Part shown: piece after piece, positions 9,722 to 50,641 of the stretch | How positions within the stretch are numbered: the stretch's first letter is position 1 | How the letters are laid out: every line of letters starts with the position of its first letter | Source: Bdellovibrionota bacterium | GTDB taxonomy: Bacteria; Bdellovibrionota_C; UBA2361; OMII01 | Length of the DNA: 64,000 nucleotides | Reading direction: 5' to 3' | NCBI GenBank assembly: GCA_044360075.1 | Contig: JBIKLA010000018.1 | Coordinates: forward strand, 2,053 to 66,052 | Made by a program: the position numbers and the translations under genes | The notes under the pieces: generated by a model | Seen by the model: only the letters and a program-made list of their open reading frames with translations | Told to the model about the DNA's origin: nothing | Databases searched by the model: none

Positions 9722-9862
9722 ACCCTTAAAAGGGATAAACCTAGGTAAACAGCTAATTTTTACTCTACTCTTCCAGTATCAATAGTGTCGGTAGGTTACG
9801 CAAGTAAGATGTCTAGGTATGATAACTGCTCGCAAAAACAAGCATTAATCGGGGTGGTTACC

Positions 9863-9891
9863 TTGACACTGAAGGGTCTTACCTTTATTTT
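9863..9891 (+). promoter_or_regulatory. Sigma-70-type promoter for the tRNA pair
   Basis: TTGACA (9863-9868), 17-bp spacer, TATTTT (9886-9891), ending 18 bp before tRNA-Ile. Confidence 0.65.
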
Positions 9892-9909
9892 CCGGGTCTT
9901 GCAGCGGAG

Positions 9910-9986
9910 GGGCCAGTAGCTCAGCTGGTTAGAGTACACGCCTGATAAGCGTGAGGTCGGTAGTTCGAGTCTACCCTGGCCCACCA
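9910..9986 (+). tRNA. tRNA-Ile (GAT)
   Basis: Acceptor stem GGGCCAG/CTGGCCC, D arm AGCTCAGCTGGTTAGAGT, anticodon arm CACGC-CTGATAA-GCGTG, T loop GTTCGAG, encoded CCA. Confidence 0.97.
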
Positions 9987-10146
9987 TTATTCCCATTCCG
10001 ATGGCGGCAAAGCGCGCATGCGCCGGCTGCCGGGGGAGATGCTCCAAGCAGAGACGGGCGACGTTCCTCGCGTTTGGCGCGGCGCTTGGCTTTGCGAGAG
10101 TTTGAGGGCACAATGCAGCCGCTGCATCGGCAGCTTCATTAATCGT

Positions 10147-10222
10147 GGGCCTGTAGCTCAGTTGGTAGAGCACTAGCCTTGCAAGCTAGGGGTCCAGAGT
10201 TCGAATCTCTGCAGGTCCACCA
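10147..10222 (+). tRNA. tRNA-Ala (TGC)
   Basis: Acceptor stem GGGCCTG/CAGGTCC with the G3:U70 identity pair, anticodon arm CTAGC-CTTGCAA-GCTAG, T loop GTTCGAA, encoded CCA. Confidence 0.97.
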
Positions 10223-10443
10223 CGATAACCTCTCATCCTCTTCAGTCCTTCCCTGTTGTTTTCTTCTGCGATGCCTCTGGCTCACGAAAAAGCTCTGCTG
10301 TGCTGCGGCTCGCCGTGTCTCTCATAGCCGCGCCCCGCCATCGCGCTTTAGCAGCACGTTTTAGCAGCGCGTTGGTCTCGGGCGAAATGTCTGGGAGCGA
10401 AGAGGTTGGAACTGGGCGGCTGCTCTTGAGAGAGAGCCGAGAT

Positions 10444-10521
10444 CGCATCCAGAGGCTCCGCCAGGGGAGCGGAGAGATGGGCTGATGAGGCTAGGGCATA
10501 TGTAGGGTGCCTCTGGATGCG
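10444..10521. repeat. 13-bp perfect inverted repeat
   Basis: CGCATCCAGAGGC (10444-10456) and GCCTCTGGATGCG (10509-10521), 52 nt apart. Confidence 0.8.
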
Positions 10522-10556
10522 GCGGCATTTACTTCATCCTTTCTGCTTTCCTCCTA

Positions 10557-10982
10557 TTAACAAAAATGAAAATTCATCGTTTCGGGGCTGATGTAACCAC
10601 CATCCCGGCACTGGATGTGCGCGAGACGGAGGAAAACATCGGTGGCGTATTTGGCGTCACTGAGAAACTCAGTGCGCCTGCTGGGAACGGGGCTGTCCCA
10701 GCGCGGGCTATTAACGGAACAGAGCTCCCTTGCCATGCGTGTCGGCACGGTCGCTCTGCTCCAGGTTCCGTCGTTGGGGCGCGACAGGAACCAATTGGCT
10801 TCGTTGCTAGAACTGCTCAGGTCACATGGACGGATGTCCGTGTGAGAGCACTTCTCATCCTCTGCAGTACAATTGGCATGTGAGATATCGATAATGAGGG
10901 AGCGTCGCTTTGGGGCCGGAGCAGCACTGTCCGCTGTGAGCATCTTGTTCGGGGCTGCTACTTTTGAAAACTGCGACTTCAT
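10557..10982 (-). CDS. Possible small hypothetical protein (141 aa)
   Basis: Only sizeable ORF with a plausible RBS (GAGGT about 10 nt before the ATG) in a 1.1-kb gap. No recognisable motif. Confidence 0.35.
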   Translation of the reverse strand: MKSQFSKVAAPNKMLTADSAAPAPKRRSLIIDISHANCTAEDEKCSHTDIRPCDLSSSSNEANWFLSRPNDGTWSRATVPTRMARELCSVNSPRWDSPVPSRRTEFLSDAKYATDVFLRLAHIQCRDGGYISPETMNFHFC

Positions 10983-11299
10983 ACTGCTTACAACCTCACT
11001 TGAGCATGCGCGCTCAATATCCTTCCTTGGGCAAGGTTCGCGCCAACAACGGTGCCGTTGCTGGTTTCAGGCACTTAGGGAATGGCGAGGTGCCCGCATG
11101 CAGAAGCCTCCTTCCCGTTGCTCTGAAAAAAGTTGCGCCAGAAATGTGCAGATGCGCAACGCTCAGGGGATTTCGTAGGCCAAGCTCCGCGAAGGAGCGG
11201 AGGGCGGGGCCGACTGGCGATTTTTGTGCGCTTCGTTGGGGGGACCCCCGGTCATCGGGCAGCGGGGGTGCCGCCAATACACTGTGACCCGTGGCTCCC

Positions 11300-11347
11300 A
11301 AAAATGAGCTGGCCTGCCCGAGCGTGAGGTGACTCGAGCAGGCCAGC
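11300..11347 (-). terminator. Intrinsic terminator after the secreted Cys-rich gene
   Basis: 10-bp stem GCTGGCCTGC/GCAGGCCAGC (11308-11317 and 11338-11347), followed on the minus strand by TCATTTTT, starting 22 nt past the stop. Confidence 0.6.
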
Positions 11348-11369
11348 GATTGTGCGAGTCTACTTCTCC

Positions 11370-12033: not shown

Positions 12034-13008
12034 CTAGGCCTGCGCGCGGCTGCGGCTTTGGGCGGCCCGGCGTACGATCTCCTCTGCTGAGGCGCCGGCG
12101 AGGATAACGCCGCCTATGATGGCAAACTCAAGCTGGGTCGGGATGTCGAGCAGCACGATCGCGTTGCGGAGCACCTGCATGAGGGTCGCACCGAGGATCA
12201 CTCCGGTGATGCTGGATTCGCCGCCCTTAAGGCTGCACCCGCCGAGGACCGCGGCAGCGATCGCATAGAGTTCGTAAAAGTTGCCAAAGTCCGAGGGCTG
12301 CGCCGAGTTTACGTCGAGGATAAAGAGCATCCCGCCGAATCCTGCTAGAACCGAGCAGATCACGTAGGCGGCCGTCTTGATGCGACCTGTGCTAATGCCA
12401 CTAAAGCGAGCCGCGACCTCGTTCCTGCCCACGGCCCGAATGTAGAGGCCGTAGGTGGTCTTGCTCATGACGAATCCCGCCATGAGCGCCACCGCCGCTG
12501 TCACAAGCACCACTGCCGGAATAGCGAAGGGAAGGAATCCAAGCCCCGAGAAGGAGCCCGTCGTTATGCTGCGAATCGCGTCGTGCTCCATTCCGAAACC
12601 CTGCGTCTGGTCTCCCGTGATGCCCCTCGCAATCCCACGGTAAAGCAGGAGGCCGCACAGCGTCACGATAAAGGGCTGCAGCCCGAGCTTGGTGATGAGT
12701 GTTCCGTGAAGCAGCCCCAGGAGGACCGAGAGAGAAACGAGCGCCGCAAGTGCGGCTGGCCATGGCCAGCCCATCTGGACTACTAGCCAGGGGAGGAGGG
12801 TGCCAATGAGGCACACAACCGATCCGATTGAGAGGTCGATGCCGCCGCATGTGATGACGAACGAGGCCCCGATGCTGAGCAGGGAAAAGAGCGCCGTTCT
12901 TCGCATCAAGTTCTCGATATTGGCCGGAGCGGCGAAGCGATCATTTGCGGCGTAGATGAACGCGCATGCCACAACGAGCAGAAGGATGAGTCCTAAGTTC
13001 TTTTTCAT
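12034..13008 (-). CDS. Sugar ABC transporter permease (RbsC family)
   Basis: GGIDLSIGS, LQPFIVTL, RAVGRNEVAARFSGI and YELYAIAAAVLGGCSLKGG motifs. Confidence 0.93.
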   Translation of the reverse strand: MKKNLGLILLLVVACAFIYAANDRFAAPANIENLMRRTALFSLLSIGASFVITCGGIDLSIGSVVCLIGTLLPWLVVQMGWPWPAALAALVSLSVLLGLLHGTLITKLGLQPFIVTLCGLLLYRGIARGITGDQTQGFGMEHDAIRSITTGSFSGLGFLPFAIPAVVLVTAAVALMAGFVMSKTTYGLYIRAVGRNEVAARFSGISTGRIKTAAYVICSVLAGFGGMLFILDVNSAQPSDFGNFYELYAIAAAVLGGCSLKGGESSITGVILGATLMQVLRNAIVLLDIPTQLEFAIIGGVILAGASAEEIVRRAAQSRSRAQA

Positions 13009-17395: not shown

Positions 17396-17561
17396 AAAAG
17401 AACCTTATAATGCATGTCGGAAGGATCTCCAGAAAAGTTGAGCCTTTAAGTTGCTTTTCTGGTCGATCAACAAAGCCAATGAAAAAGGAGATGTGGCGCT
17501 ATTCCGGCACAACGATCATGCAAGTAGGGGGGGAGGGGCGGCAACCGGGCGTTGAATGGCC

Positions 17562-35728: not shown

Positions 35729-36712
35729 CTATACGAGCCCCTTCTGGCGCAGGTCAGCAAATGCCTCGGCGAAGTAGGTGATAATGAGGTCGGCGCCAGC
35801 GCGCTTCATGCTTGTAAGAACCTCGACCATAACGCGGCGCTCGTCGATCCAGCCCTTCTGGGCGGCCGCCTTAATCATCGCGTACTCCCCGCTGACGTTG
35901 TATACCGCCGTCGGCATCTTGAAGCGCTCCTTTACGGCATGCAGCACGTCGAGGAACGCCAAGCCCGGCTTGACCATCACGATGTCCGCTCCCTGCTCGA
36001 TATCGAGCGCAACCTCGCGCATAGCCTCGTCGAAGTTTGCGGGATCCATCTGGTACGAGCGGCGATCGCCATACTCAGGGGCTGACTGCACGGCATCGCG
36101 GAAGGGGCCATAGAACGACGAGGCAAACTTGGCCGCGTAGCTCATGATCGGGAGGTGCGAAAATCCGGACTCGTCGAGGCCGTGGCGCAGGGCGCCTATC
36201 ATCCCGTCGAGCATGCCGCTTGGAGCAATTATGTCGGCGCCGGCTTCGGCGTGAACGAGCGCTTGCTTGACGAGGTTAGGAAGGGTCGCGTCGTTCTGCA
36301 GCTCGCCGTCCTTCATGACTCCACAGTGGCCGTGCGATGTGTACTCGCAGAAGCATAGGTCGGTGATGACGACCATCTCAGGGATAGCCTTCTTAATCGC
36401 CTTGATCGCCTGCGGAATGATTCCGTGCGGGTGCCAGGCCGATGAGCCGATCTCGTCCTTGAACTCTGGGATGGCGAAGAGGAGCACGGAGCGAACCCCG
36501 AGATCGTGCAGCCGCTGCGACTTCTTGACCGCCGTGTCGACGCTGAGCTGGTACTGGCCGGGCATTGAGGCGATCTCGCGCTCTACTTTCTCTCCTGGAA
36601 CAACAAAGAGCGGGGCGATGAGGTTCGACAACTCCACGCGGGTCTCCCGCACCATGTCACGGATAATTTCAGTGCGGCGGAGCCGGCGGGGGCGAACAGA
36701 AGGAAACGACAT
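35729..36712 (-). CDS. hemB: Porphobilinogen synthase (Zn-binding type)
   Basis: RPRRLR, DLCFCEYTSHGHCG, APSGMLDG, SSFYGPFRDA, MVKPG and YNVSGEYAMIK motifs. Confidence 0.97.
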   Translation of the reverse strand: MSFPSVRPRRLRRTEIIRDMVRETRVELSNLIAPLFVVPGEKVEREIASMPGQYQLSVDTAVKKSQRLHDLGVRSVLLFAIPEFKDEIGSSAWHPHGIIPQAIKAIKKAIPEMVVITDLCFCEYTSHGHCGVMKDGELQNDATLPNLVKQALVHAEAGADIIAPSGMLDGMIGALRHGLDESGFSHLPIMSYAAKFASSFYGPFRDAVQSAPEYGDRRSYQMDPANFDEAMREVALDIEQGADIVMVKPGLAFLDVLHAVKERFKMPTAVYNVSGEYAMIKAAAQKGWIDERRVMVEVLTSMKRAGADLIITYFAEAFADLRQKGLV

Positions 36713-36867
36713 AGCAATACCGAATAACGTTAATGGTGCGATATTACAGGGTTTAATGAGAAAAAGTAAAGGTGTGCGTCCTGCCTGTAGTCACGAAAAA
36801 AACCTTAACTATCCTTGTGTTAGTGGCATACTCCGGGCCGGACCGCGAGAAAATGCTCCCAGCCGAG

Positions 36868-36894
36868 GAAACAATTTCTGCGGACTCCCGAACA
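36868..36894 (+). promoter_or_regulatory. Sigma-28-like promoter upstream of the sigma factor gene
   Basis: GAAA-N15-CCCGAACA (compare consensus TAAA-N15-GCCGATAA), 33 nt before ATG 36928. The same -10 and spacing recur at 39617-39643. Confidence 0.55.
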
Positions 36895-36927
36895 TCTGAG
36901 TGAGTTTTGGGGAGGAGGGCGCCAAGT

Positions 36928-37737
36928 ATGCCACCGGGAAAGCGGAGCGGAGAACGGGAAGCAGCGGCGCCTGCGCGAGCCAAGAAGCCGGGCGCTTCTG
37001 GACGGGGACGGGCGCGGCGGGCGGCGGAGCGCCGAAGTCCACAGGGCGACCGCGCTCGAAACAGGCTTATCGAGCGCTACCACGGCTATGTGGGCCTTAT
37101 AGTGGCGCGCCTCGTGCGCACGATGCGGTTCCCGGCAGCGCTTCGCGATGAGTTCATGTCAGCCGGGTACCTTGGGCTCGTTGAGGCCGCGAGCCGTTTC
37201 GACCCGGGGCGCGGCCACGACTTCCGCGCCTTCGCCTTCCTCCGCATTCGCGGTGCGGTCATCGACTACATTCGGTCCTCGTGCGAGCTCTCGGGAAACA
37301 CCTACCGTGTGTTCAAGGCGCTTGAGGCGGCGCAGGAGCTGCGCGCCGAAAGCCTTGAGCATCAGCAAACGGGCTCAACGGGCCGCGAGGAGCGGGCCGC
37401 GAAGTCCTTGACGGCGCTTTCAAAGAGCCTCGTTGCCTACCGCCTCACGGCGCTCAAGCACGGCATGGTCACCATAGGCGCGGCCTCACCGGATGATCCT
37501 GAGCGGTGCCTTGAGGAGAAGCAGGGTTCCGAAAAAATCCGCGCGATCGTAGCAACATTGCCCGAGAAGGAACGAACTATCATTGAGCAGTACTACTTCC
37601 ACGACCGCAAGCTGACGGACGTGGCGGCCCAGTACGCAGGGCTCTCCAAATCGTGGGTATCGAGGCTGCATGATCGCGCGCTTGTTTTCCTTAAAGAAAA
37701 GTTCCAGCAAGAAGCGCCTGAGCTCCTCGAGCCATGA
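36928..37737 (+). CDS. fliA: FliA/WhiG-family (sigma-28-like) RNA polymerase sigma factor
   Basis: Region 2 DEFMSAGYLGLVEAASRFDPGRGHDFRAFAFLRIRGAVIDYIR and region 4 LPEKERTIIEQYY...LSKSWVSRLHDRAL. GGAGGAGG RBS precedes ATG 36928. Confidence 0.88.
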   Translation: MPPGKRSGEREAAAPARAKKPGASGRGRARRAAERRSPQGDRARNRLIERYHGYVGLIVARLVRTMRFPAALRDEFMSAGYLGLVEAASRFDPGRGHDFRAFAFLRIRGAVIDYIRSSCELSGNTYRVFKALEAAQELRAESLEHQQTGSTGREERAAKSLTALSKSLVAYRLTALKHGMVTIGAASPDDPERCLEEKQGSEKIRAIVATLPEKERTIIEQYYFHDRKLTDVAAQYAGLSKSWVSRLHDRALVFLKEKFQQEAPELLEP

Positions 37738-38548
37738 GCGCCGCCCGCAGTCCCGTTCGCGATTCGTTGTGGTCCTGATTTTCGTGGCAGCACTTGCGGC
37801 GGGGTGTGATGAGCAGATTGTGCATGACCTCTCCGAAAACGACGCCAACCGGGTTGTGAGCCGCCTCAGTGCGGCCGATCTTGGGGCGCACAAGGTCCAG
37901 CAATCGGATGGCCGCTGGGCTGTTGCTGTGCGCCAGGAAGCCATCGTCCCGGCGCTCTCGTTCCTTGAGAGCAACCGAGTGCTCATTGCGCGGCCATCGG
38001 GGGGTGCCAAGAGCGGCATCGTGCCGAGCCGCGAGGAGCAGTGGTTTCGCTACGAGCGCGCCATGGCACAGACGATTGAAGAGAGCCTCGGGGCGCTCAG
38101 TGGCGTGCTTGAGGCGCGGGTGCACCTCAACTTGCCTGAGACGGATCCCCTCTTTGGAACGAGGAAGGAGGCGGTGGGAAGCGGCTCAGTGCTGCTCCTG
38201 ATCGACTCACGGTACTCCGCCGCAAACGGGGAGGTTGCAGCGCTTGTGGCGGGAGCCGCCGGGATCCCGGTGGCTCAGGTGACGGTGCTCAAGAGTGCCG
38301 CGAGCCCGCCGCCGGTTGCTGCGCGCCCGGCAGAAAAGACATCCGAAGGCGAGGCACTGGAGGCAGCCAGCCAGCAGCCGATCGGCGCCGCCAAGCCTGC
38401 AGGGGGCTCCGGGCTCAACATGCCGGTGACGATCGGACTTGCGGCGGCCGTGGGCGTGGTGGGCGTGGTGCTGCTCTCACGGCTTAGGCAGCCGAGACGA
38501 CAGCCGTTTGCGTTCCGGAGGCTGGACCGTCACGACAACGATGAATAA
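37670..38548 (+). CDS. sctJ: Type III secretion inner-membrane ring lipoprotein SctJ (YscJ/PrgK family)
   Basis: Lipobox LAAGC, LSENDANRVVSRL, and IVPSREEQ...LSGVLEARVHLNLP, with a single C-terminal TM. Too short for flagellar FliF. Start ambiguous (see findings). Confidence 0.85.
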   Translation: MIARLFSLKKSSSKKRLSSSSHERRPQSRSRFVVVLIFVAALAAGCDEQIVHDLSENDANRVVSRLSAADLGAHKVQQSDGRWAVAVRQEAIVPALSFLESNRVLIARPSGGAKSGIVPSREEQWFRYERAMAQTIEESLGALSGVLEARVHLNLPETDPLFGTRKEAVGSGSVLLLIDSRYSAANGEVAALVAGAAGIPVAQVTVLKSAASPPPVAARPAEKTSEGEALEAASQQPIGAAKPAGGSGLNMPVTIGLAAAVGVVGVVLLSRLRQPRRQPFAFRRLDRHDNDE

Positions 38549-38557
38549 GGGGAAGGC

Positions 38558-38806
38558 ATGGCGAGTTCTCGCGGAGTGACAGGGGAGGGGGCGGCTGATG
38601 CTGCACAGCACGCTGCCGAGGTGATCTCTCCGATCAGCATGGCGTGCTTCATGGAAGGCATCCCGCTCGTTTCGGTTCCGATGACAGGTGAAGAGGGCAC
38701 GAGAGTCGCTGAGGGGCTTGCGACGCTCCAGCGAAAGCCGGCGGTCGAGGCGTATCTCTTCTGCCTGCAGCAGCTCCTCTTGGCGCACGGTGACGGGGCA
38801 TGCTGA
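38558..38806 (+). CDS. Small hypothetical protein in the T3SS operon (SctK position)
   Basis: Good RBS (AAGGGGAAGG); stop overlaps the next start. Confidence 0.65.
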   Translation: MASSRGVTGEGAADAAQHAAEVISPISMACFMEGIPLVSVPMTGEEGTRVAEGLATLQRKPAVEAYLFCLQQLLLAHGDGAC

Positions 38807-39609
38807 CGGTCCTTAACCGTGAGGAGCTGCTCCGCGATGCGGCACTGCGGCCGATGATTGAGCGCACGGTGCGTGCGCTCGCTCGGGAGCAGCGTGCGGA
38901 AATTATCTGCCGGCCGACGGTGGGCGGGTTCTCCGCGCCGTGGATCGTGCTCCTGGATGGGGCGGGCATCGGGATGGGGCTGTGGACTGACGAGCTGCTG
39001 CCGTGCGCCACGGAGCTGCGGCGTGCCATCGTTCGGGTACGGTGCGTGGCCGCCATCGTGAATGCGTTTGGGGGCGCCAGCGCTTTCCCTCTAGCGCTGT
39101 CGTCGATGCGCGAGCCCCCGGCGGAATGGCCGCGCTACAGCATCACAATCGGGGCTGATGTGTGTGTCGTCGCGTGCTCCCCCGGACTGCCGCAGACCGG
39201 GTTGTGGGAGACCCCGACGGAGTTGGCAATCCCCCGCGTGCGCGTGCCGTTGTGGTGCGAGCTTCCGCTGCTGAGCGCAACGGAGCTCTTGCTAGAGCGG
39301 GTCCCCGTGGGGATTGGGGGCAGTAACATTCAGGGATGGCTACGGTGTGCTGATGGAGGGGCAATGACGATTGAGATAGTTGAGAAGCTGCAGGAACCTG
39401 GCCCCGCGCATGCGCAGGTGCGGGTTGAGCTGGGGGTTATAGAGCTTACGCTTGAGGAGCTGCTTTCACTTCGGCCGGGAAGCGTGCTTGAGATCGGTGC
39501 GGCGCTGCCCCTGGCCTGTACCCTCTCTGTGGGGGCGACCGAGATTGTGCGCGCGATGCTTGAGCCGTCTGAGGGTGGATTTCTGCTGAGGATCGCCCCA
39601 AAAAGCTGA
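38800..39609 (+). CDS. sctQ: SctQ/FliM-FliN-like sorting-platform protein with C-terminal SpoA domain
   Basis: C-terminal VRVELGVIELTLEELLSLRPGSVLEI...GFLLRI matches the SpoA pattern; T3SS context. Confidence 0.7.
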   Translation: MLTVLNREELLRDAALRPMIERTVRALAREQRAEIICRPTVGGFSAPWIVLLDGAGIGMGLWTDELLPCATELRRAIVRVRCVAAIVNAFGGASAFPLALSSMREPPAEWPRYSITIGADVCVVACSPGLPQTGLWETPTELAIPRVRVPLWCELPLLSATELLLERVPVGIGGSNIQGWLRCADGGAMTIEIVEKLQEPGPAHAQVRVELGVIELTLEELLSLRPGSVLEIGAALPLACTLSVGATEIVRAMLEPSEGGFLLRIAPKS

Positions 39610-39616
39610 CGTTCCC

Positions 39617-39643
39617 GCAACTTTTCGCCCTGGCCCCCGAACA
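39617..39643 (+). promoter_or_regulatory. Sigma-28-like internal promoter upstream of the needle/rod-like gene
   Basis: GCAA-N15-CCCGAACA, 37 nt before ATG 39681. Confidence 0.55.
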
Positions 39644-39680
39644 CCCTTCTTGCAACCACTCGAAGAGGAGGGCTTACCGT

Positions 39681-40001
39681 ATGTTCACCAGCTTAATTCA
39701 GGCAACACCGCAGGGCTCATGGGGGCTTCAGCCCGAGGGCTCCTCGATGCTCCGCTACGCGCCAGAGCCACACAGCACGCTCGGTAAGTGGGTTCAGGCA
39801 GCGACGAGCACCGTCGCAAACATGGCGACAACCGCCTTGACCGGCAATCCGATGCTCGACTCGGCGGCTGACTTCCAGCAGCTAATCCAGACGCAGATCC
39901 AGGTCCAGCGGGACATGCAGATATACACCATGGTCTCGAACCTTGAGCGCTCCAAGCACGAGACGGAGATGGCCCCGGTCCGAAACATGCGTGTTGGCTA
40001 G
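39681..40001 (+). CDS. SctF/SctI-like needle or inner-rod protein (106 aa)
   Basis: C-terminal amphipathic helix FQQLIQTQIQVQRDMQIYTMVSNLERSKHETEMAPVRNMR resembles the ends of T3SS needle/rod subunits. S/P/T-rich N-terminus, no signal peptide, strong RBS. Confidence 0.55.
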   Translation: MFTSLIQATPQGSWGLQPEGSSMLRYAPEPHSTLGKWVQAATSTVANMATTALTGNPMLDSAADFQQLIQTQIQVQRDMQIYTMVSNLERSKHETEMAPVRNMRVG

Positions 40002-40052
40002 TGAGATGACCGCCCTCCCGCGAGGGAGGGCGCCACCATCCGGAGGCACGAA

Positions 40053-41939
40053 GTGAAGGCAGCATCGATCAGCTCACGGGACATTGCAGTGCCTCTTGGC
40101 CTGCTCCTCGTCGTCGGGTGTATCTTAATTCCGCTGCCTCCGGGTATCCTCGATATCCTGCTCTGCTCAAACCTGCTTTTTGCGCTGCTACTTGTAATCG
40201 GATCGCTGCACATTCGCGATCCGCTGCGGATCGCAACGCTCCCCTCGCTTCTCCTCATGGCGACCCTCTCTAGGCTCTCGCTGAACATCGCCACGACGCG
40301 GGCGGTGCTGGGCTCGGGGCACGCGGGCAAGGCGGTGGAGGCCTTCGGCTCTGTCGTGATTCAGGGCAGCGCTGTTGTTGGATTTGTCCTCTTTGTGCTT
40401 ATCACCCTGATTCAGTTTATCGTTGTGGCAAAGGGCGCGGAGCGTGTGGCTGAGGTTGCGGCGCGCTTTACCTTGGACGCCATGCCCGGCAAGCAGATGG
40501 CTATCGACGCGGAGCTGCGCAGCGGGCTGCTCGACCCGGAACAGGCGCGGCGCAAGCGCATGGAGGTCCAGACGGAATCGCGCTTCTACGGCGCGCTCGA
40601 CGGTGCCATGAAGTTCGTCAAAGGGGATGCTATAGCGGGGATCGTCATAACAGCCGTAAATATCTGCGGCGGCCTGCTCATAGGAATTCTCGTCCATCAG
40701 CTCGACCTTGAGGTAGCACTTAGGCGCTACACAATTCTCACCATCGGCGACGGGCTCTTGTCGCAGATTCCGTCACTGCTAAACTCGGTTGCGGCCGGGC
40801 TGGTAGTCACGCGCGTTCAGGTCGATGAGTCATCCACGCTCTCGTCGGACCTCCTCATGCAGCTTGGGCAATTCAGGGCCGCGCGCACGTTCGTTGCCGC
40901 GGCCTCCTTCGTGCTCGGGTGCCTGCCGGGCATGCCGCATGTGGCGCTGCTGGCTGTGAGCTCCGCCATAGCGCTTCCGCTCATCATGGTGCGGCGGGGC
41001 GGTCCCAAAGATGAGCCGCCGCAGCCCAAGCTCTTTGAGCCCAGGCTCGCGCACTCCGTGCAGCTGGAAGTTTCCAAGGCGCTGCTTCCCTGCATGCCGG
41101 CTCTCGACAAAGTGAACGAGGCCCTTGAGGCGATTCGGGAGGATTTTTTCTCGCGCTGGGGGGTCGTGCTCCAGCGCCCTGGATTGTCGCTGTGGGATGA
41201 GCCGCAGGGGGCCTTTCGCATCTTGGTGCGCGGCATGGAGGTTTCGCGCTGCGAGCGCGATCCTGACGCAGCGACGTGGGATCTTCTTCTTCGGGAGGTG
41301 CGGGAGGTTGTCGATGGGCACAAAGCTGAGCTGATCGATGATGGGGCGACGCGACGGGCGCTTGATTACGTTGAGAAGCAGGTTCCTGACCTCGTGACGG
41401 GCACGGTGCCATCGCTGCTGTCACTCACGCAGATGACATCGCTGCTTCGCAGCCTCCTGCGAGAAGATCTCACGACGCGACACCTGGACATCATTCTTCA
41501 AACGATCGCCGAGAGTGGTGGGCGGTTTTCGGAGCGGGCGCTCTTGGCCGAGGTGCGCGTGGCGCTGGCACCGGTGGTCAGCCAGGCTGTGGGTCGTGGC
41601 CGCCGCATTCAGGCTGTGGCGCTTGATCCGCTGCTTGACCTTGCGCTCTCAAAGGCCGAAGAGAGCGCCTCCCTTTTGGCTGGGGACCTCCTTGATCTGG
41701 TCAGCGAAGAGGCAGGCGGGGCGGCGGCGAAGGGCCTTCCGATCCTCACGTCAAAGCGGGCACGGGCTTACGTAAGGGATATCGTCCGGGTGCGCTGGCC
41801 GCACGCAGTCATCATCGCGCATGAGGAAGTAGCCCCGCGCTATGAGCTTGAGATCGTTGGAAAGATAGAGGTGGCGCAGGAGCATCAGCGCGAGCAGCTG
41901 CTAAGCGCCACCCTGGGGATGAGGGAGGCGCGGGCATGA
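40053..41939 (+). CDS. sctV: Type III secretion export gate protein SctV (FlhA/LcrD, FHIPEP family)
   Basis: KGAERVAEVAARFTLDAMPGKQMAIDAEL, DGAMKFVKGDAIAG and LTIGDGLLSQIP motifs, about 8 TM helices. MKFVKGD is the injectisome-type variant (FlhA is usually SKFVRGD). Confidence 0.95.
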   Translation: MKAASISSRDIAVPLGLLLVVGCILIPLPPGILDILLCSNLLFALLLVIGSLHIRDPLRIATLPSLLLMATLSRLSLNIATTRAVLGSGHAGKAVEAFGSVVIQGSAVVGFVLFVLITLIQFIVVAKGAERVAEVAARFTLDAMPGKQMAIDAELRSGLLDPEQARRKRMEVQTESRFYGALDGAMKFVKGDAIAGIVITAVNICGGLLIGILVHQLDLEVALRRYTILTIGDGLLSQIPSLLNSVAAGLVVTRVQVDESSTLSSDLLMQLGQFRAARTFVAAASFVLGCLPGMPHVALLAVSSAIALPLIMVRRGGPKDEPPQPKLFEPRLAHSVQLEVSKALLPCMPALDKVNEALEAIREDFFSRWGVVLQRPGLSLWDEPQGAFRILVRGMEVSRCERDPDAATWDLLLREVREVVDGHKAELIDDGATRRALDYVEKQVPDLVTGTVPSLLSLTQMTSLLRSLLREDLTTRHLDIILQTIAESGGRFSERALLAEVRVALAPVVSQAVGRGRRIQAVALDPLLDLALSKAEESASLLAGDLLDLVSEEAGGAAAKGLPILTSKRARAYVRDIVRVRWPHAVIIAHEEVAPRYELEIVGKIEVAQEHQREQLLSATLGMREARA

Positions 41940-42562
41940 AACTGTGGAGAAATGCCGCACGCGGCGCAACTTTGGGGGGCGCAACTTCGATTACCCGGTA
42001 TATGCTGTTGGCGGCCACAGCGCTTAGCGGCTGCTGGCTTCCGGTGGGCGTGCCGGCTGAACGGGTTGAGCGGGCGCAGCAGCTCGTCGATGAGGGCACC
42101 GAGGCGCTGCGGGAGCGGCGGTTTAGCGCCGCGCAGGTCAAGTTTTCGCTGGCTTATGACCTCGCGCCACTTACTGCGGCGCTCGATGGCCAGGGCTGTG
42201 TGGCGCTTCTGCGCGGTGAGTACCAGCGGGCAGAGGAGCTGTTTAAGGAGGCGCTTGCGAGTGACGCAAGCTATGACCGCGCCTTGGCCAATCTCGCGCT
42301 CCTCTACGATGTTACGGGCCGGAGCAGTGAGGCGAGGGAGCTATACGATCGCTTCCTTGAGCAGGAACCTGAGGAGGCCACTGTGCGGAATAACAGGGCG
42401 GCGCTGGCATACGACCTCAGCGCCGACGGGGAGTGGGTCGGGGATGAATTATCGAAGGCGTCGCTCCTTGTGGATGATGGCGTTGTTATAGGAAACCTTA
42501 AGCTGGTAGGACGAATTCCGGAGGAACGACATGACAAAGAAAGCGACCAAGGAACGAAGTGA
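41936..42562 (+). CDS. TPR lipoprotein (TadD/pilotin-like)
   Basis: Lipobox LSGC; three to four TPR-like repeats (ALDGQGCVAL, ALANLALLY, VRNNRAAL); ATGA coupling to sctV. Confidence 0.7.
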   Translation: MKLWRNAARGATLGGATSITRYMLLAATALSGCWLPVGVPAERVERAQQLVDEGTEALRERRFSAAQVKFSLAYDLAPLTAALDGQGCVALLRGEYQRAEELFKEALASDASYDRALANLALLYDVTGRSSEARELYDRFLEQEPEEATVRNNRAALAYDLSADGEWVGDELSKASLLVDDGVVIGNLKLVGRIPEERHDKESDQGTK

Positions 42563-42848
42563 GAATCTTCCCCACAGGAGTGCCCGGCAGGTGCCCGGTC
42601 CGGCGCAGGAGGTTGCGCCTCCGGTGTCGATTGAGGACCTTAACCTAAACGCCACGATCCTCGCCGCGCAGAAACAGGTTTTTAAATCTGAGCAGGAGGC
42701 GCTCGATTTTTTCTACGCAAGGCTGCTCCAGGCGGCCGGGGGTAGCGCTGCTGAGCAGGCACAGATGATGGAATTCCTTGAGCTTTTGATTGAAACGGAC
42801 CCCCTACTCAAGGAGGAGTTGCTGTCTGGGGTAACGATCAGAAAGTGA
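42531..42848 (+). CDS. Small acidic helical hypothetical protein
   Basis: GGAGG RBS; overlaps the upstream gene by 32 nt. Confidence 0.7.
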   Translation: MTKKATKERSENLPHRSARQVPGPAQEVAPPVSIEDLNLNATILAAQKQVFKSEQEALDFFYARLLQAAGGSAAEQAQMMEFLELLIETDPLLKEELLSGVTIRK

Positions 42849-42881
42849 GTCGATCCAGAGCGCTGCATAATCCTAAGGTGC

Positions 42882-43601
42882 ATGCAGCAGGCACCGGGCC
42901 AGGAAGCCCAACGAAAAATCCTCATAGCTGACGATGACGCCGACTCGCGCGTAATCGTGGCCAGCGTTATCTCGCTCATGGGGTACACGCCCGTTGTGGT
43001 CGCCAATGGGCAAGAGGCTCTTGAGCAGAGCAAGCAGGAGGTGCCGCACCTCGCCATTCTTGACTACATGATGCCTGACCTCACCGGGATCGAGGTGTGT
43101 CACCGCATTAAGCACAACGCCGCTGGAGAGTTTGTGCCGGTGCTCATGCTAACCGCGCGCGACACGGTGCGCGACAAGGTGGCGGCGTTTGAGGAGGGGG
43201 TGGATGACTACCTCACCAAGCCGTTCAACTACCAGGAGTTTCAGGCACGCGTGAAGGCGCTGCTTCGGGTGCGCGACCTTACCTTCGACCTGCGCGACAC
43301 CAACGAAGAGCTCAAGAAGATGCAGCAGAAGATCGTCGAGCAGGAGCGCCAGCTGGCAGTGGGCCAGCTAGCCGGCACGGCGGCGCACCAGCTGGGCCAG
43401 CCGCTTTCGGCCATCCTGCTCAACTGCTACCTCATCGAGCAGCTTCCCAAGAACGACCCGAAATTCATCGGCGCGCTGGCCGCCATCAAGAGCGACACCA
43501 AGCGCATGAGCGACCTCATTAACCAGCTTCGGTCCGTAAAGGCATCTGATCGCGAAGGCTACTTCGGCGGCACTGAGATACTCAAGCTTAAGGACGACTA
43601 G
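42882..43601 (+). CDS. Response regulator receiver fused to a HisKA/DHp domain, lacking the ATPase domain
   Basis: REC motifs IADDD, ILDYMMP and YLTKPF, then a coiled coil and H-box AAHQLGQPL. The ORF ends about 70 aa after the His with no N/G boxes. Confidence 0.85.
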   Translation: MQQAPGQEAQRKILIADDDADSRVIVASVISLMGYTPVVVANGQEALEQSKQEVPHLAILDYMMPDLTGIEVCHRIKHNAAGEFVPVLMLTARDTVRDKVAAFEEGVDDYLTKPFNYQEFQARVKALLRVRDLTFDLRDTNEELKKMQQKIVEQERQLAVGQLAGTAAHQLGQPLSAILLNCYLIEQLPKNDPKFIGALAAIKSDTKRMSDLINQLRSVKASDREGYFGGTEILKLKDD

Positions 43602-43604
43602 CGG

Positions 43605-44633
43605 CTAGGCCACTTCCCGGCGGCGAGGCAGCGAGCTCTCGATTGCCTGGTAGCCGCCCGTCATATCCCTGAGCTGTGCGCGTAGCGTCGACAGCAGGAA
43701 CGCCCCCGGGATACCTATTACAATGTATTGGATAATGTGCTGCGTGAGGACCATGCACAGCGCAAGCTCTTTTGGCTCAACGCCAGCCGAGGTGAGCACC
43801 TTAATGGCCACGAGCTCAATAACTCCAAAGCCTCCGGGAGCAGCCGGGATCAGGGAGCTGAAGTTGACCGCGACGAGGAACAGCACCGTTCCCGAGAGCG
43901 AGAGGGGCGAGTTGTACGCCGCTGCAACGCAGGCGAAGGCACCGAGCTCCACGAGCCAAATCGCCGTAGACCAGGCTGCGATTTTGAGGGCCCTCCTCGG
44001 AGAACAGAGGGGGCTTAAGCCGTGAATAAAGGTTTGCACGCGCGAGAAGGTGTAGGTCGATGCCTTGTGGTCGAGCCGCTCCGCTACCTTGTCGGTAAAC
44101 GCAAAGATCTTTGCGCGCAGCGAGAGCACCGCGACAACCCCAACTGCGACCGCCACGAAGAGGTACGCCACGTAGGTGAGATTCTGGGCGTACTCGGGAT
44201 CGAGGTGCCCTTGGCCCAGCCACATGATGATGATTACGAACATAAGGCTTATCGCTAGGCCGTCCGCAAGACGCTCGCTCGCTATCGTCGCCAGCACCAG
44301 CGTGCGCGGCTTGCCGACGACCTTGGAGCCCAGGTGCGCCCTGACAAGCTCTCCGGCACGGGCGGGCAGGATGTTGTTCATGAAGAAGCCGAGCACGAGT
44401 ACGCGGTACGACGAGCCAAAGGGCAGAGGACTGTCAGGAAAGAGGAGCGGCCATCGCGCGGCACGCAGAATGTACGACAGCACCGTCAGCAGAACTACGC
44501 CGAGCAGATACAGGACCTTAGCGCCGGTTGCGTACGTGCGGAGGATCTCAAAGCTTACCTCATGGAAGGCGAGGTACAGGGCCACGATCGTGATCAGCCA
44601 GGGAAGGACAAACTTAAAGATAATTCGCTTCAT
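43605..44633 (-). CDS. UPF0104 / lysylphosphatidylglycerol synthase TM-region (flippase-like) membrane protein
   Basis: RAARW, GFFMNNILPARAGELVR, ASERLAD and LIPAAPGGFGVIE motifs. Confidence 0.85.
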   Translation of the reverse strand: MKRIIFKFVLPWLITIVALYLAFHEVSFEILRTYATGAKVLYLLGVVLLTVLSYILRAARWPLLFPDSPLPFGSSYRVLVLGFFMNNILPARAGELVRAHLGSKVVGKPRTLVLATIASERLADGLAISLMFVIIIMWLGQGHLDPEYAQNLTYVAYLFVAVAVGVVAVLSLRAKIFAFTDKVAERLDHKASTYTFSRVQTFIHGLSPLCSPRRALKIAAWSTAIWLVELGAFACVAAAYNSPLSLSGTVLFLVAVNFSSLIPAAPGGFGVIELVAIKVLTSAGVEPKELALCMVLTQHIIQYIVIGIPGAFLLSTLRAQLRDMTGGYQAIESSLPRRREVA

Positions 44634-50374: not shown

Positions 50375-50641
50375 CGGCACGACGGTTGCCGACGGCGACC
50401 CTTTTTGAGTATTTGAAGCTCCCATTAGCGCCCTCCCAAAGGATCTCTTCGTCACAAAAGGATATTCCCTTGAGCCCGGCCTTTGGCATCAAACTTCCTG
50501 GTGTAAAACACGGGTTTTTCTGCTACCTTGCCCGGGCAGTTGTCAGGGCCCCTCATAGTAGGGTAATCACCTGACTCGGCTGAACTTTTGGGGGTTCGCC
50601 GAAGCAGCACACTGTAGCCAGTTTTTTAGCGAGCACGAGCC

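Follow-up and report, generated by a model that had tools for sequence, protein, structure and literature searches.

We analysed a stretch of 64,000 nt (hereafter the window) from a Bdellovibrionota bacterium (assembly GCA_044360075.1, contig JBIKLA010000018.1, positions 2,053 to 66,052), in which a gene for a FliA/WhiG-like sigma factor heads an operon encoding parts of a non-flagellar type III secretion system (T3SS)-like machine. Downstream of the sigma gene lie sctJ, an open reading frame (ORF) of 82 codons, a SctQ-like gene, the gene of a conserved protein of 106 amino acids (o106), the export gate gene sctV, a tetratricopeptide repeat (TPR) lipoprotein gene, an ORF of 105 codons and a response-regulator/HisKA gene (Table 1). 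This order, from the sigma gene to the response regulator, was intact in 20 of the 20 same-genus genomes that we compared. The genome has three FHIPEP paralogues, of which sctV is one, and a search of a collection of genome contigs with SctV returned only distant FlhA/SctV homologues (30-50% identity). The operon contains three two-block sites, P1 to P3, of a predicted promoter class derived from sigma-28 promoters, which we call class T. Two of them had been described in a first-pass annotation of the window and were recovered exactly: P1, upstream of the sigma gene, reads GAAACAATTTCTGCGGACTCCCGAACA at 36868-36894 (GAAAC-N14-CCCGAACA), and P2, between sctQ and o106, reads GCAACTTTTCGCCCTGGCCCCCGAACA at 39617-39643 (GCAAC-N14-CCCGAACA). 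They share the -10 element and the spacing, and lie respectively 33 and 37 nt from the ATG codons at 36928 and 39681. P3, overlooked at that stage, starts 25 nt past the sctV stop codon and was found by scanning with a weight matrix, so that the operon would hold three class T promoters instead of two. We also looked for a sigma-70-like promoter in the region 36600-43700 and detected none.

Table 1. Features of the sigma-sct operon, and class T or related sites elsewhere in the window and in its genome. Positions without a contig prefix are those of the window; C followed by a number denotes another contig of the same genome.
Feature	Position	Strand	Basis and remarks
P1, class T promoter (predicted), before sigma gene	36866..36896	+	GAAAC -35 at 36868-36872; CCCGAACA -10 at 36887-36894; sequence, matrix, orthologous sites
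FliA/WhiG-like sigma factor, 269 aa, candidate reader of the motif	36928..37737	+	Pfam Sigma70_r2, Sigma70_r4; NCBIfam TIGR02479
sctJ	37670-38548	+	Pfam YscJ_FliF; NCBIfam SctJ match under cut-off
82-aa ORF	38558-38806	+	
SctQ-like gene	38800-39609	+	Pfam FliMN_C (FliN C-terminal domain); NCBIfam SctQ match under cut-off
P2, class T promoter (predicted), sctQ-o106 intergenic region	39615..39645	+	GCAAC -35 at 39617-39621; CCCGAACA -10 at 39636-39643; sequence, matrix, orthologous sites
o106, conserved 106-aa protein	39681..40001	+	No family match
sctV (FHIPEP export gate)	40053..41939	+	Pfam FHIPEP, E 5.5e-154
P3, third class T promoter (predicted), GCGCAACTTTGGGGGGCGCAACTTCGATTACC	41964..41995	+	24.5 bits
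TPR lipoprotein gene	41936-42562 (longest ORF); probable leaderless start 42002	+	Pfam TPR, lipobox, start codon
105-aa ORF	42531-42848	+	Synteny
Response-regulator/HisKA gene	42882-43601	+	Pfam Response_reg, HisKA
Marginal promoter-like site before S8 peptidase paralogue 1, GCTCAACTTTTCTGGAGATCCTTCCGACATGC	17412..17443	-	11.1 bits, not clear class T
Class T site, comM	C6:7456		
Class T site, comF	C19:87979		
Class T site, radC	C25:47615		
Class T site, comEA-like	C52:51912		
Class T site, T2SS-F type	C15:5671		
Class T site, T2SS-E type	C17:52846		
Class T site, ssb	C45:72501		
Class T sites, prepilins	C29:135738; C53:7571		
Transposase-family class-T-like sites	C38:113166-113196; C20:14865-14835; C12:8042-8012; C27:4832-4802; C43 (3 copies)		

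The consensus of class T over 40 sites is (A/G)CG(C/A)AACTTTT-N11-yCGA(A/T)(C/T)A. All class T sites have a -35 of the form G(C/A)AAC with an invariant C at position 5, and the distance from the C of AAC to the C of CGA is 16 nt in 30 of the 40 and 17 nt in the other 10, P1 and P2 both having 16 nt. The CGA itself was required by the search pattern for the training sites; it was preceded by C or T in 32/40 of them and followed by A or T in 40/40, and about 130 further orthologous sites showed the same -10 pattern. Matches to the strict pattern G(A/C)AAC-N14-CCCGAACA number two in the window, where 100 dinucleotide-preserving shuffles gave 0.00, and three in the whole genome (3.28 Mb) against about 0.27 expected by our own base-composition estimate, the 8-mer CCCGAACA alone being found 145 times. 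By scanning the window's own genome with a weight matrix built solely from 40 orthologous sites of 20 related genomes, the window being excluded, we found P2 at rank 6 (24.2 bits) and P1 at rank 10 (23.9 bits) of 6.1 million positions. Among the 47 matches of at least 20 bits, 87% were intergenic, compared with 16% of the genome (as judged from our own crude gene calls by codon bias), and 49% had a same-strand gene start within 150 nt, compared with 3% of the matches at 8-10 bits. Moreover, with the -35 left free, the pentamer with the strongest enrichment at 16 nt before CGAWHA in upstream regions was GCAAC, seen 11 times where 0.42 were expected.

Orthologues of the window sigma were found in 61/61 related genomes, and were 48-65% identical to it when from the same genus and 28-47% when from elsewhere in the order. 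Despite this low identity, a class T site precedes the sigma gene in 20/20 same-genus genomes, and another lies between sctQ and the o106 orthologue in 20/20; the motif is thus conserved upstream of the orthologues of both genes. The synteny of the sigma locus persists in 20 order-level genomes taken from 20 other families, where the matrix (at least 13 bits) found a site before the sigma gene and/or o106 in 17/20 and before both in 13/20. A class T site also follows sctV in at least 12 of the 20 relatives, several of which have a true intergenic region there. Across the relatives, the -10 element varies from clade to clade, changing together at every promoter of the putative regulon: it is CGAAC in the clade of the window, CGATA in G032, G029 and G009, and CGATT in G002, G017, G001 and G028.

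We found three sets of type III export genes in the genome: the flagellar set on contig C10, beside the canonical fliA gene, the set of the window, and a second non-flagellar set on contig C39. The remainder of the window's set is scattered on two other contigs. The C50 operon encodes a SctI-like protein, a FliK-like protein (sctP), sctR, sctS, sctT, the N-domain of sctU, a sensor kinase and a separate FlhB C-terminal piece, and it is headed by the top matrix match of the genome (30.9 bits). The C41 operon consists of a FliH-like (sctL) gene and the gene of the SctN ATPase, and is headed by a site of 20.9 bits. Each of these two sites is kept in 26/30 relatives, nearly always as the sole matrix match at its locus and at the expected place. 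No class T site was found at the head of the C39 cluster, which carries two divergent sigma genes. The window's machine thus follows a logic like that of HrpL, with one box before the sigma gene and before all machine operons, kept in relatives. On C50 (8786-16120, minus strand), SctU is split into a membrane-plus-linker part of 266 amino acids and an FlhB C-terminal piece of 84 amino acids, with the gene of a 1064-amino-acid sensor histidine kinase between them.

Beyond the machine itself, class T sites precede genes of several other functions. First, a site of 25.7 bits lies before the gene of a DUF1521 protein with a Ser-rich N-terminus and is kept in 20/24 relatives, and another precedes the gene of a pesticin-like lysozyme. 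Both products are plausible candidates for secreted substrates, in line with the proposal in the first-pass annotation that the motif could serve to find effector genes. Several small proteins to which we could assign no function also follow high-scoring sites. Second, sites were found at pilus genes (type II secretion system (T2SS)-F type, T2SS-E type, PilP and two prepilins), and third, at genes of DNA uptake and processing (comM, comF, comEA-like, radC, ssb, uvrD and recQ). The comM site was recognised by the matrix at a fixed position in 25/30 relatives, and GCAAC-N16-CGAA(C/T)A is present in each of the remaining five. Taken together, the predicted regulon comprises about 40 genes in addition to all the scattered operons of the non-flagellar type III secretion-like machine. 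The earlier suggestion that the motif defines a regulon therefore holds, but the gene set is wider than a T3SS with its effectors, as it takes in pili, DNA uptake and multicopy transposases. These transposases are Y1 (IS200-like) proteins of 324 amino acids, flanked by REP-like palindromes TGTAGCCGGGCTAC, with at least nine full genes and about 15 motif copies, and each carries a class-T-like ACACAACTTCCCnCCCCCACCTCCGATTCTC that ends 6 nt before the ATG. They are probably REP-associated tyrosine transposases (RAYTs), which may be co-expressed with the DNA-uptake genes.

As judged from its layout, class T is a predicted promoter of sigma-28 geometry with a changed -35. The -10 is of the GCCGATAA type with the CGA core, and the spacing agrees with that of sigma-28 promoters, which is 11 nt between the two 8-mers or 15 nt from TAAA to GCCGATAA. 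The resemblance put forward in the first-pass annotation is therefore borne out for the CGA core and for the 16-17-nt spacing, whereas the -35 is G(C/A)AAC and not TAAA(G); sites with TAAAG or TTAAG do occur in the same genome, where they make up a separate set. Furthermore, 12 of the 44 sites of at least 16 bits end exactly 6 nt before a start codon. In the case of comM this gap is kept in most relatives, and the start codon is fixed by protein alignments from residue 1 in 30 genomes. With a gap of 6 nt, the first base of the start codon falls 7-8 nt past the -10, where a sigma-28 transcript would start, which fits the transcription of these 12 genes as leaderless mRNAs from the predicted starts.

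Given its two blocks and fixed spacer, and the response-regulator gene present in the operon, the motif could also be the binding site of a transcription factor, such as this response regulator, or even a chance repeat. We consider either very improbable. Chance is excluded by the shuffles and by the ranks obtained with the independent matrix. As for an operator, a transcription-factor site would not keep a fixed distance to the start codon as class T does in those 12 cases, including the conserved one of comM; in addition, the orientation of the sites is strict, their geometry and CGA core match sigma-28 promoters exactly, and the operon has no other detected promoter.

We then considered which sigma factor reads class T. 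Among the 15 sigma-70-family genes of the genome, four are sigma-28-like: the one of the window, the canonical fliA (C10:28340-29092), and the divergent pair of the C39 cluster, C39a and C39b. The window sigma has the domain content of this group, with region 2 (Sigma70_r2, residues 59-117), region 4 (Sigma70_r4, residues 209-256), no region 1.1 and a length within the range of about 240-270 amino acids, and its gene is the only one of the four that is preceded by class T. In the recognition helix of region 4.2, the window sigma (KSWVSRLHDRA) is nearer to FliA (ESRASQIRSRA) than the helices of C39a and C39b are, which fits a promoter that retains sigma-28 geometry. Promoters of the FliA type, which we call class F, form a class separate from class T in this genome. 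One flagellin gene carries TCAAAG-N16-CCGAATA, and C39a is preceded by TTAAG-N17-CCGATA, within a site reading CTTAAGG-N-GCCGATAG. The C39a promoter was of class F in 17 of 30 relatives, that is wherever a site was found, and never had GCAAC. The C39b gene is preceded by a third motif, GAAGCA-N17-GATAAGGGGG (C39:54731-54761, between the divergent C39a and C39b), which is conserved in relatives; a scan of the genome for this motif returned this single copy, so no regulon could be defined for it.

A first possibility is that the canonical FliA reads both TTAAG- and GCAAC-type -35 elements, the T3SS operon and its sigma gene being merely FliA targets. This would parallel Bdellovibrio bacteriovorus, whose FliA acts as a global regulator of the attack phase, and would agree with the likeness of the CGA-type -10 cores of the two classes and with the presence of FliA in 60/61 genomes. 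We nevertheless find it improbable, for several reasons. First, the two -35 types never interconvert over about 170 orthologous sites. Second, each is tied in the window's genome to its own -10 flavour, GCAAC-type going with CGA-AC/AT and TAAAG-type with GCCGA-CC/AG/TA. Third, FliA is 90-97% identical within the genus, across clades whose class T -10 differs. Finally, class T sites are absent from the flagellin genes. Of these six genes, one (upstream region at C19:42019) has a canonical sigma-54-type box, TGGCAAGCCTCTTGCT, and another (C38:91625) a FliA-type site, so that the flagellins appear to be split between two sigma factors. The one genome in which FliA was not matched, G030, was considered as a natural FliA-less test of independence from FliA, and was discarded since it has seven flagellin genes; being flagellated, it most likely lacks FliA through an assembly gap.

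Alternatively, class T could be read by C39a or C39b, in which case P1 would be one step in a cascade from FliA through C39a and C39b to the window sigma, which itself would have other targets. The architecture for such a cascade already exists, with C39a behind a FliA-type site and C39b behind its unique third motif. C39a is present in 58/61 genomes and the C39a/C39b pair in G024 and G030, and the breadth of the regulon, with its pili and DNA uptake, would suit a more global factor. Yet the C39 T3SS cluster has no class T site at its own head while every operon of the window's machine has one, and we found no fourth conserved motif for the window sigma to use. The region 4.2 helix of this sigma, nearer to that of FliA, also speaks against C39a and C39b, as does the 75-88% identity of C39a within a genus where the class T -10 drifts by clade. 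We therefore regard this alternative as rather unlikely.

From the position of the sites, the exclusion of the other promoter classes and the evolutionary rates (the window sigma, the presumed reader, evolves fastest when compared with FliA and C39a), we infer that class T is probably read by the operon's own sigma and that P1 is autoregulatory; the transcription start sites are inferred likewise. Several observations weigh against this assignment. The window sigma scores 95.5 bits against TIGR02479 (FliA_WhiG), its best-scoring NCBIfam family, which is under the cut-off of 189.6. The large share of pilus and DNA-uptake genes would not be predicted for a sigma dedicated to secretion. FliA and C39a occur nearly everywhere among the 61 genomes, so that phyletic patterns do not separate the factors, and base composition could partly explain the clade-wise drift of the -10. 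Lastly, a cascade in which P1 is a target and class T is read by C39a or C39b is possible, as set out above.

If the operon's own sigma is the reader, RNA polymerase carrying this fast-evolving FliA-like factor would recognise class T as follows. At P1, it would establish positive autoregulation of the sigma-sctJ-sctQ transcript; at P2, it would provide a separate and probably stronger supply of o106 and sctV; and at P3, it would produce the transcript of the TPR lipoprotein, the 105-codon ORF and the response regulator, leaderless in the window's clade. Class T would likewise drive sctI-sctP-sctRSTU and sctL-sctN on the other contigs, and with all three operons under its control the sigma would synchronise a machine whose genes are scattered. 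The DUF1521 protein, the pesticin-like lysozyme, the type IV pilus, DNA-uptake/processing and RAYT genes would come under the same control.

The product at the head of the P2 transcript, o106, had been taken for a needle or inner-rod subunit in the first-pass annotation, a claim that found no support in family, PDB-sequence or fold searches. None of 23 orthologues had a Pfam match and no NCBIfam match was found; a profile search of PDB sequences and a Foldseek search of structures gave no match either, and an hhalign comparison with the genome's SctI-like protein gave a probability of 0.8%. Homology to SctF/SctI (PF09392/PF17001 or solved structures) was thus not detected, and it is in general shape only that o106 fits a needle or rod subunit. 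The C-terminus (SNxxKSxHExxMAPxRNxRVG) has ten invariant columns over 23 sequences and is conserved across 40 genomes. In an AlphaFold2 model (predicted local distance difference test score 67), a disordered N-terminus is followed by a confident long C-terminal helix (residues 62-105). With such an N-terminus and its own sigma-28-type promoter, o106 might alternatively be an exported, FlgM-like anti-sigma partner.

P3 lies within the first 20 codons of the longest TPR ORF, whose ATG at 41936 overlaps the sctV stop codon (ATGA). An in-frame ATG at 42002, 7 nt past P3, opens MLLAATALSGC, a lipoprotein signal with lipobox, and this layout is shared by the window's genome, G020 and G007. With P3 inside the start of the ORF, the lipoprotein may be made in two forms, the P2 transcript giving one with a long signal peptide and P3 a short, leaderless one. 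Upstream of P1, at a distance of 35-70 nt, we also noticed a second conserved element (36798-36835, AAAAACCTTAACTAT-N6-GTTAGTGGCATAC) in the window and in its nearest relatives, L031 and L033-L035, a shorter core, GTTGTGGCA, being present in others. It could serve the sigma operon as a basal promoter or operator, or else be the promoter of hemB, which is divergent.

Three weaker variants of the motif had also been proposed in the window, two of which are not sites. The one at 50582-50605 has a spacer of 14 nt where 16-17 are needed and gave no matrix match, and upstream of the ORF starting at 10557 nothing of at least 8 bits was found on the plus strand. The third, before S8 peptidase paralogue 1, is marginal, its score lying below the range where enrichment appears, and it resembles a FliA site. 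Its -35-like half, CTCAACTTTT, is kept in the nearest relatives only, with CCGTTA as the -10, and more distant S8 orthologues have TAAAG...GCCGA sites of the FliA type. Elsewhere in the window, we found a class T-like site of 16.4 bits at 12286-12256 (minus strand), inside the gene at 12034-13008, and a match of 15.0 bits at 11138-11108 (minus strand) with a good -35 and no CGA, within the unannotated stretch 9722-11369.

Putting these observations together, we tentatively suggest, as a reading that we hold with less than even confidence, that a duplicated flagellar sigma factor was re-specified at the -35 (from TAAAG to GCAAC) and captured by a non-flagellar T3SS-like machine with scattered genes, in a largely leaderless programme that couples the machine to RAYTs, to type IV pili and to the uptake and processing of DNA. 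This programme could be a module of contact, killing and DNA uptake in uncultured predatory Bdellovibrionota, parallel to the canonical FliA attack-phase regulon. If the assignment holds, the window sigma would be a natural sigma-28 paralogue with altered -35 specificity kept in a non-flagellar type III secretion cluster, and would bear directly on the divergence of injectisome-like machines, and of their regulation, from the flagellum. As a tool, the motif joins three operons on three contigs into one machine and nominates secreted substrates (the DUF1521 protein and the pesticin-like lysozyme) in organisms not amenable to culture. The co-regulation of pilus and DNA-uptake genes and the abundance of predicted leaderless transcripts were unexpected, and yield a testable hypothesis on the use of the machine. 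Also, the sigma-promoter pairs (FliA with class F, the window sigma with class T, and the third motif before C39b) would make a compact system for the study of sigma-28 promoter recognition, and could serve as orthogonal expression parts.

Class T can be compared with several known systems. In Escherichia coli and Salmonella, flagellar class-3 promoters read by FliA (sigma-28) have the consensus TAAAGTTT-N11-GCCGATAA, with a spacing of 16 nt, to which the window's GAAACAAT-N11-CCCGAACA aligns position for position. In both, the -10 has a CGA core, the -35 is followed by a T-rich stretch, there is a link to a type III export machine, and the sigma gene itself has a promoter of the class in front of it. 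They differ in the -35 (G(C/A)AAC with its invariant C at position 5, against TAAAG), in the score of the window sigma, which falls short of the FliA/WhiG family cut-off, and in the targets of class T, which are a non-flagellar T3SS-like machine and pilus/DNA-uptake genes, with many predicted leaderless transcripts. HrpL, an extracytoplasmic function (ECF) sigma factor that Pseudomonas syringae and Erwinia encode within their T3SS cluster, shows a similar logic of control, with a hrp box before every T3SS operon and effector gene. Here too, a cluster-encoded alternative sigma is accompanied by a conserved box before operons that can be used for effector discovery; however, HrpL is of the ECF family and not sigma-28, its box is different, and we know of no control of pilus or DNA-uptake genes by HrpL. 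In streptococcal competence, ComX/SigX acts through the cin-box TACGAATA on comF, comEA, radC, ssb and pilus-like genes. The resemblance lies in an alternative sigma placed over these same kinds of genes and in CGAAT within the -10, whereas the sigma family is unrelated, and ComX has neither such a -35 block nor a link to type III secretion.

A literature search returned no account of a non-flagellar T3SS cluster in Bdellovibrionota that contains a sigma-28-like factor; it did return the FliA attack-phase regulon of B. bacteriovorus. In that species, the FliA consensus is TTAAG-N16-CCGATA (PMC3627812), which the class F sites of the flagellin gene and of C39a in the window's genome match; two thirds of the promoters active in the attack phase have a FliA motif, and Tad pilus genes are among those driven by FliA (PMC3627812, PMC5430801), with a precedent for heterologous reporters in E. 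coli (PMC5430801). Both organisms belong to the same phylum, and in both a sigma-28-type promoter controls a broad programme outside the flagellum, pili and hydrolases included. The difference is that B. bacteriovorus relies on a single FliA with a canonical -35, whereas here class F stands beside class T, with its changed -35, tied to a paralogous sigma in a T3SS-like operon.

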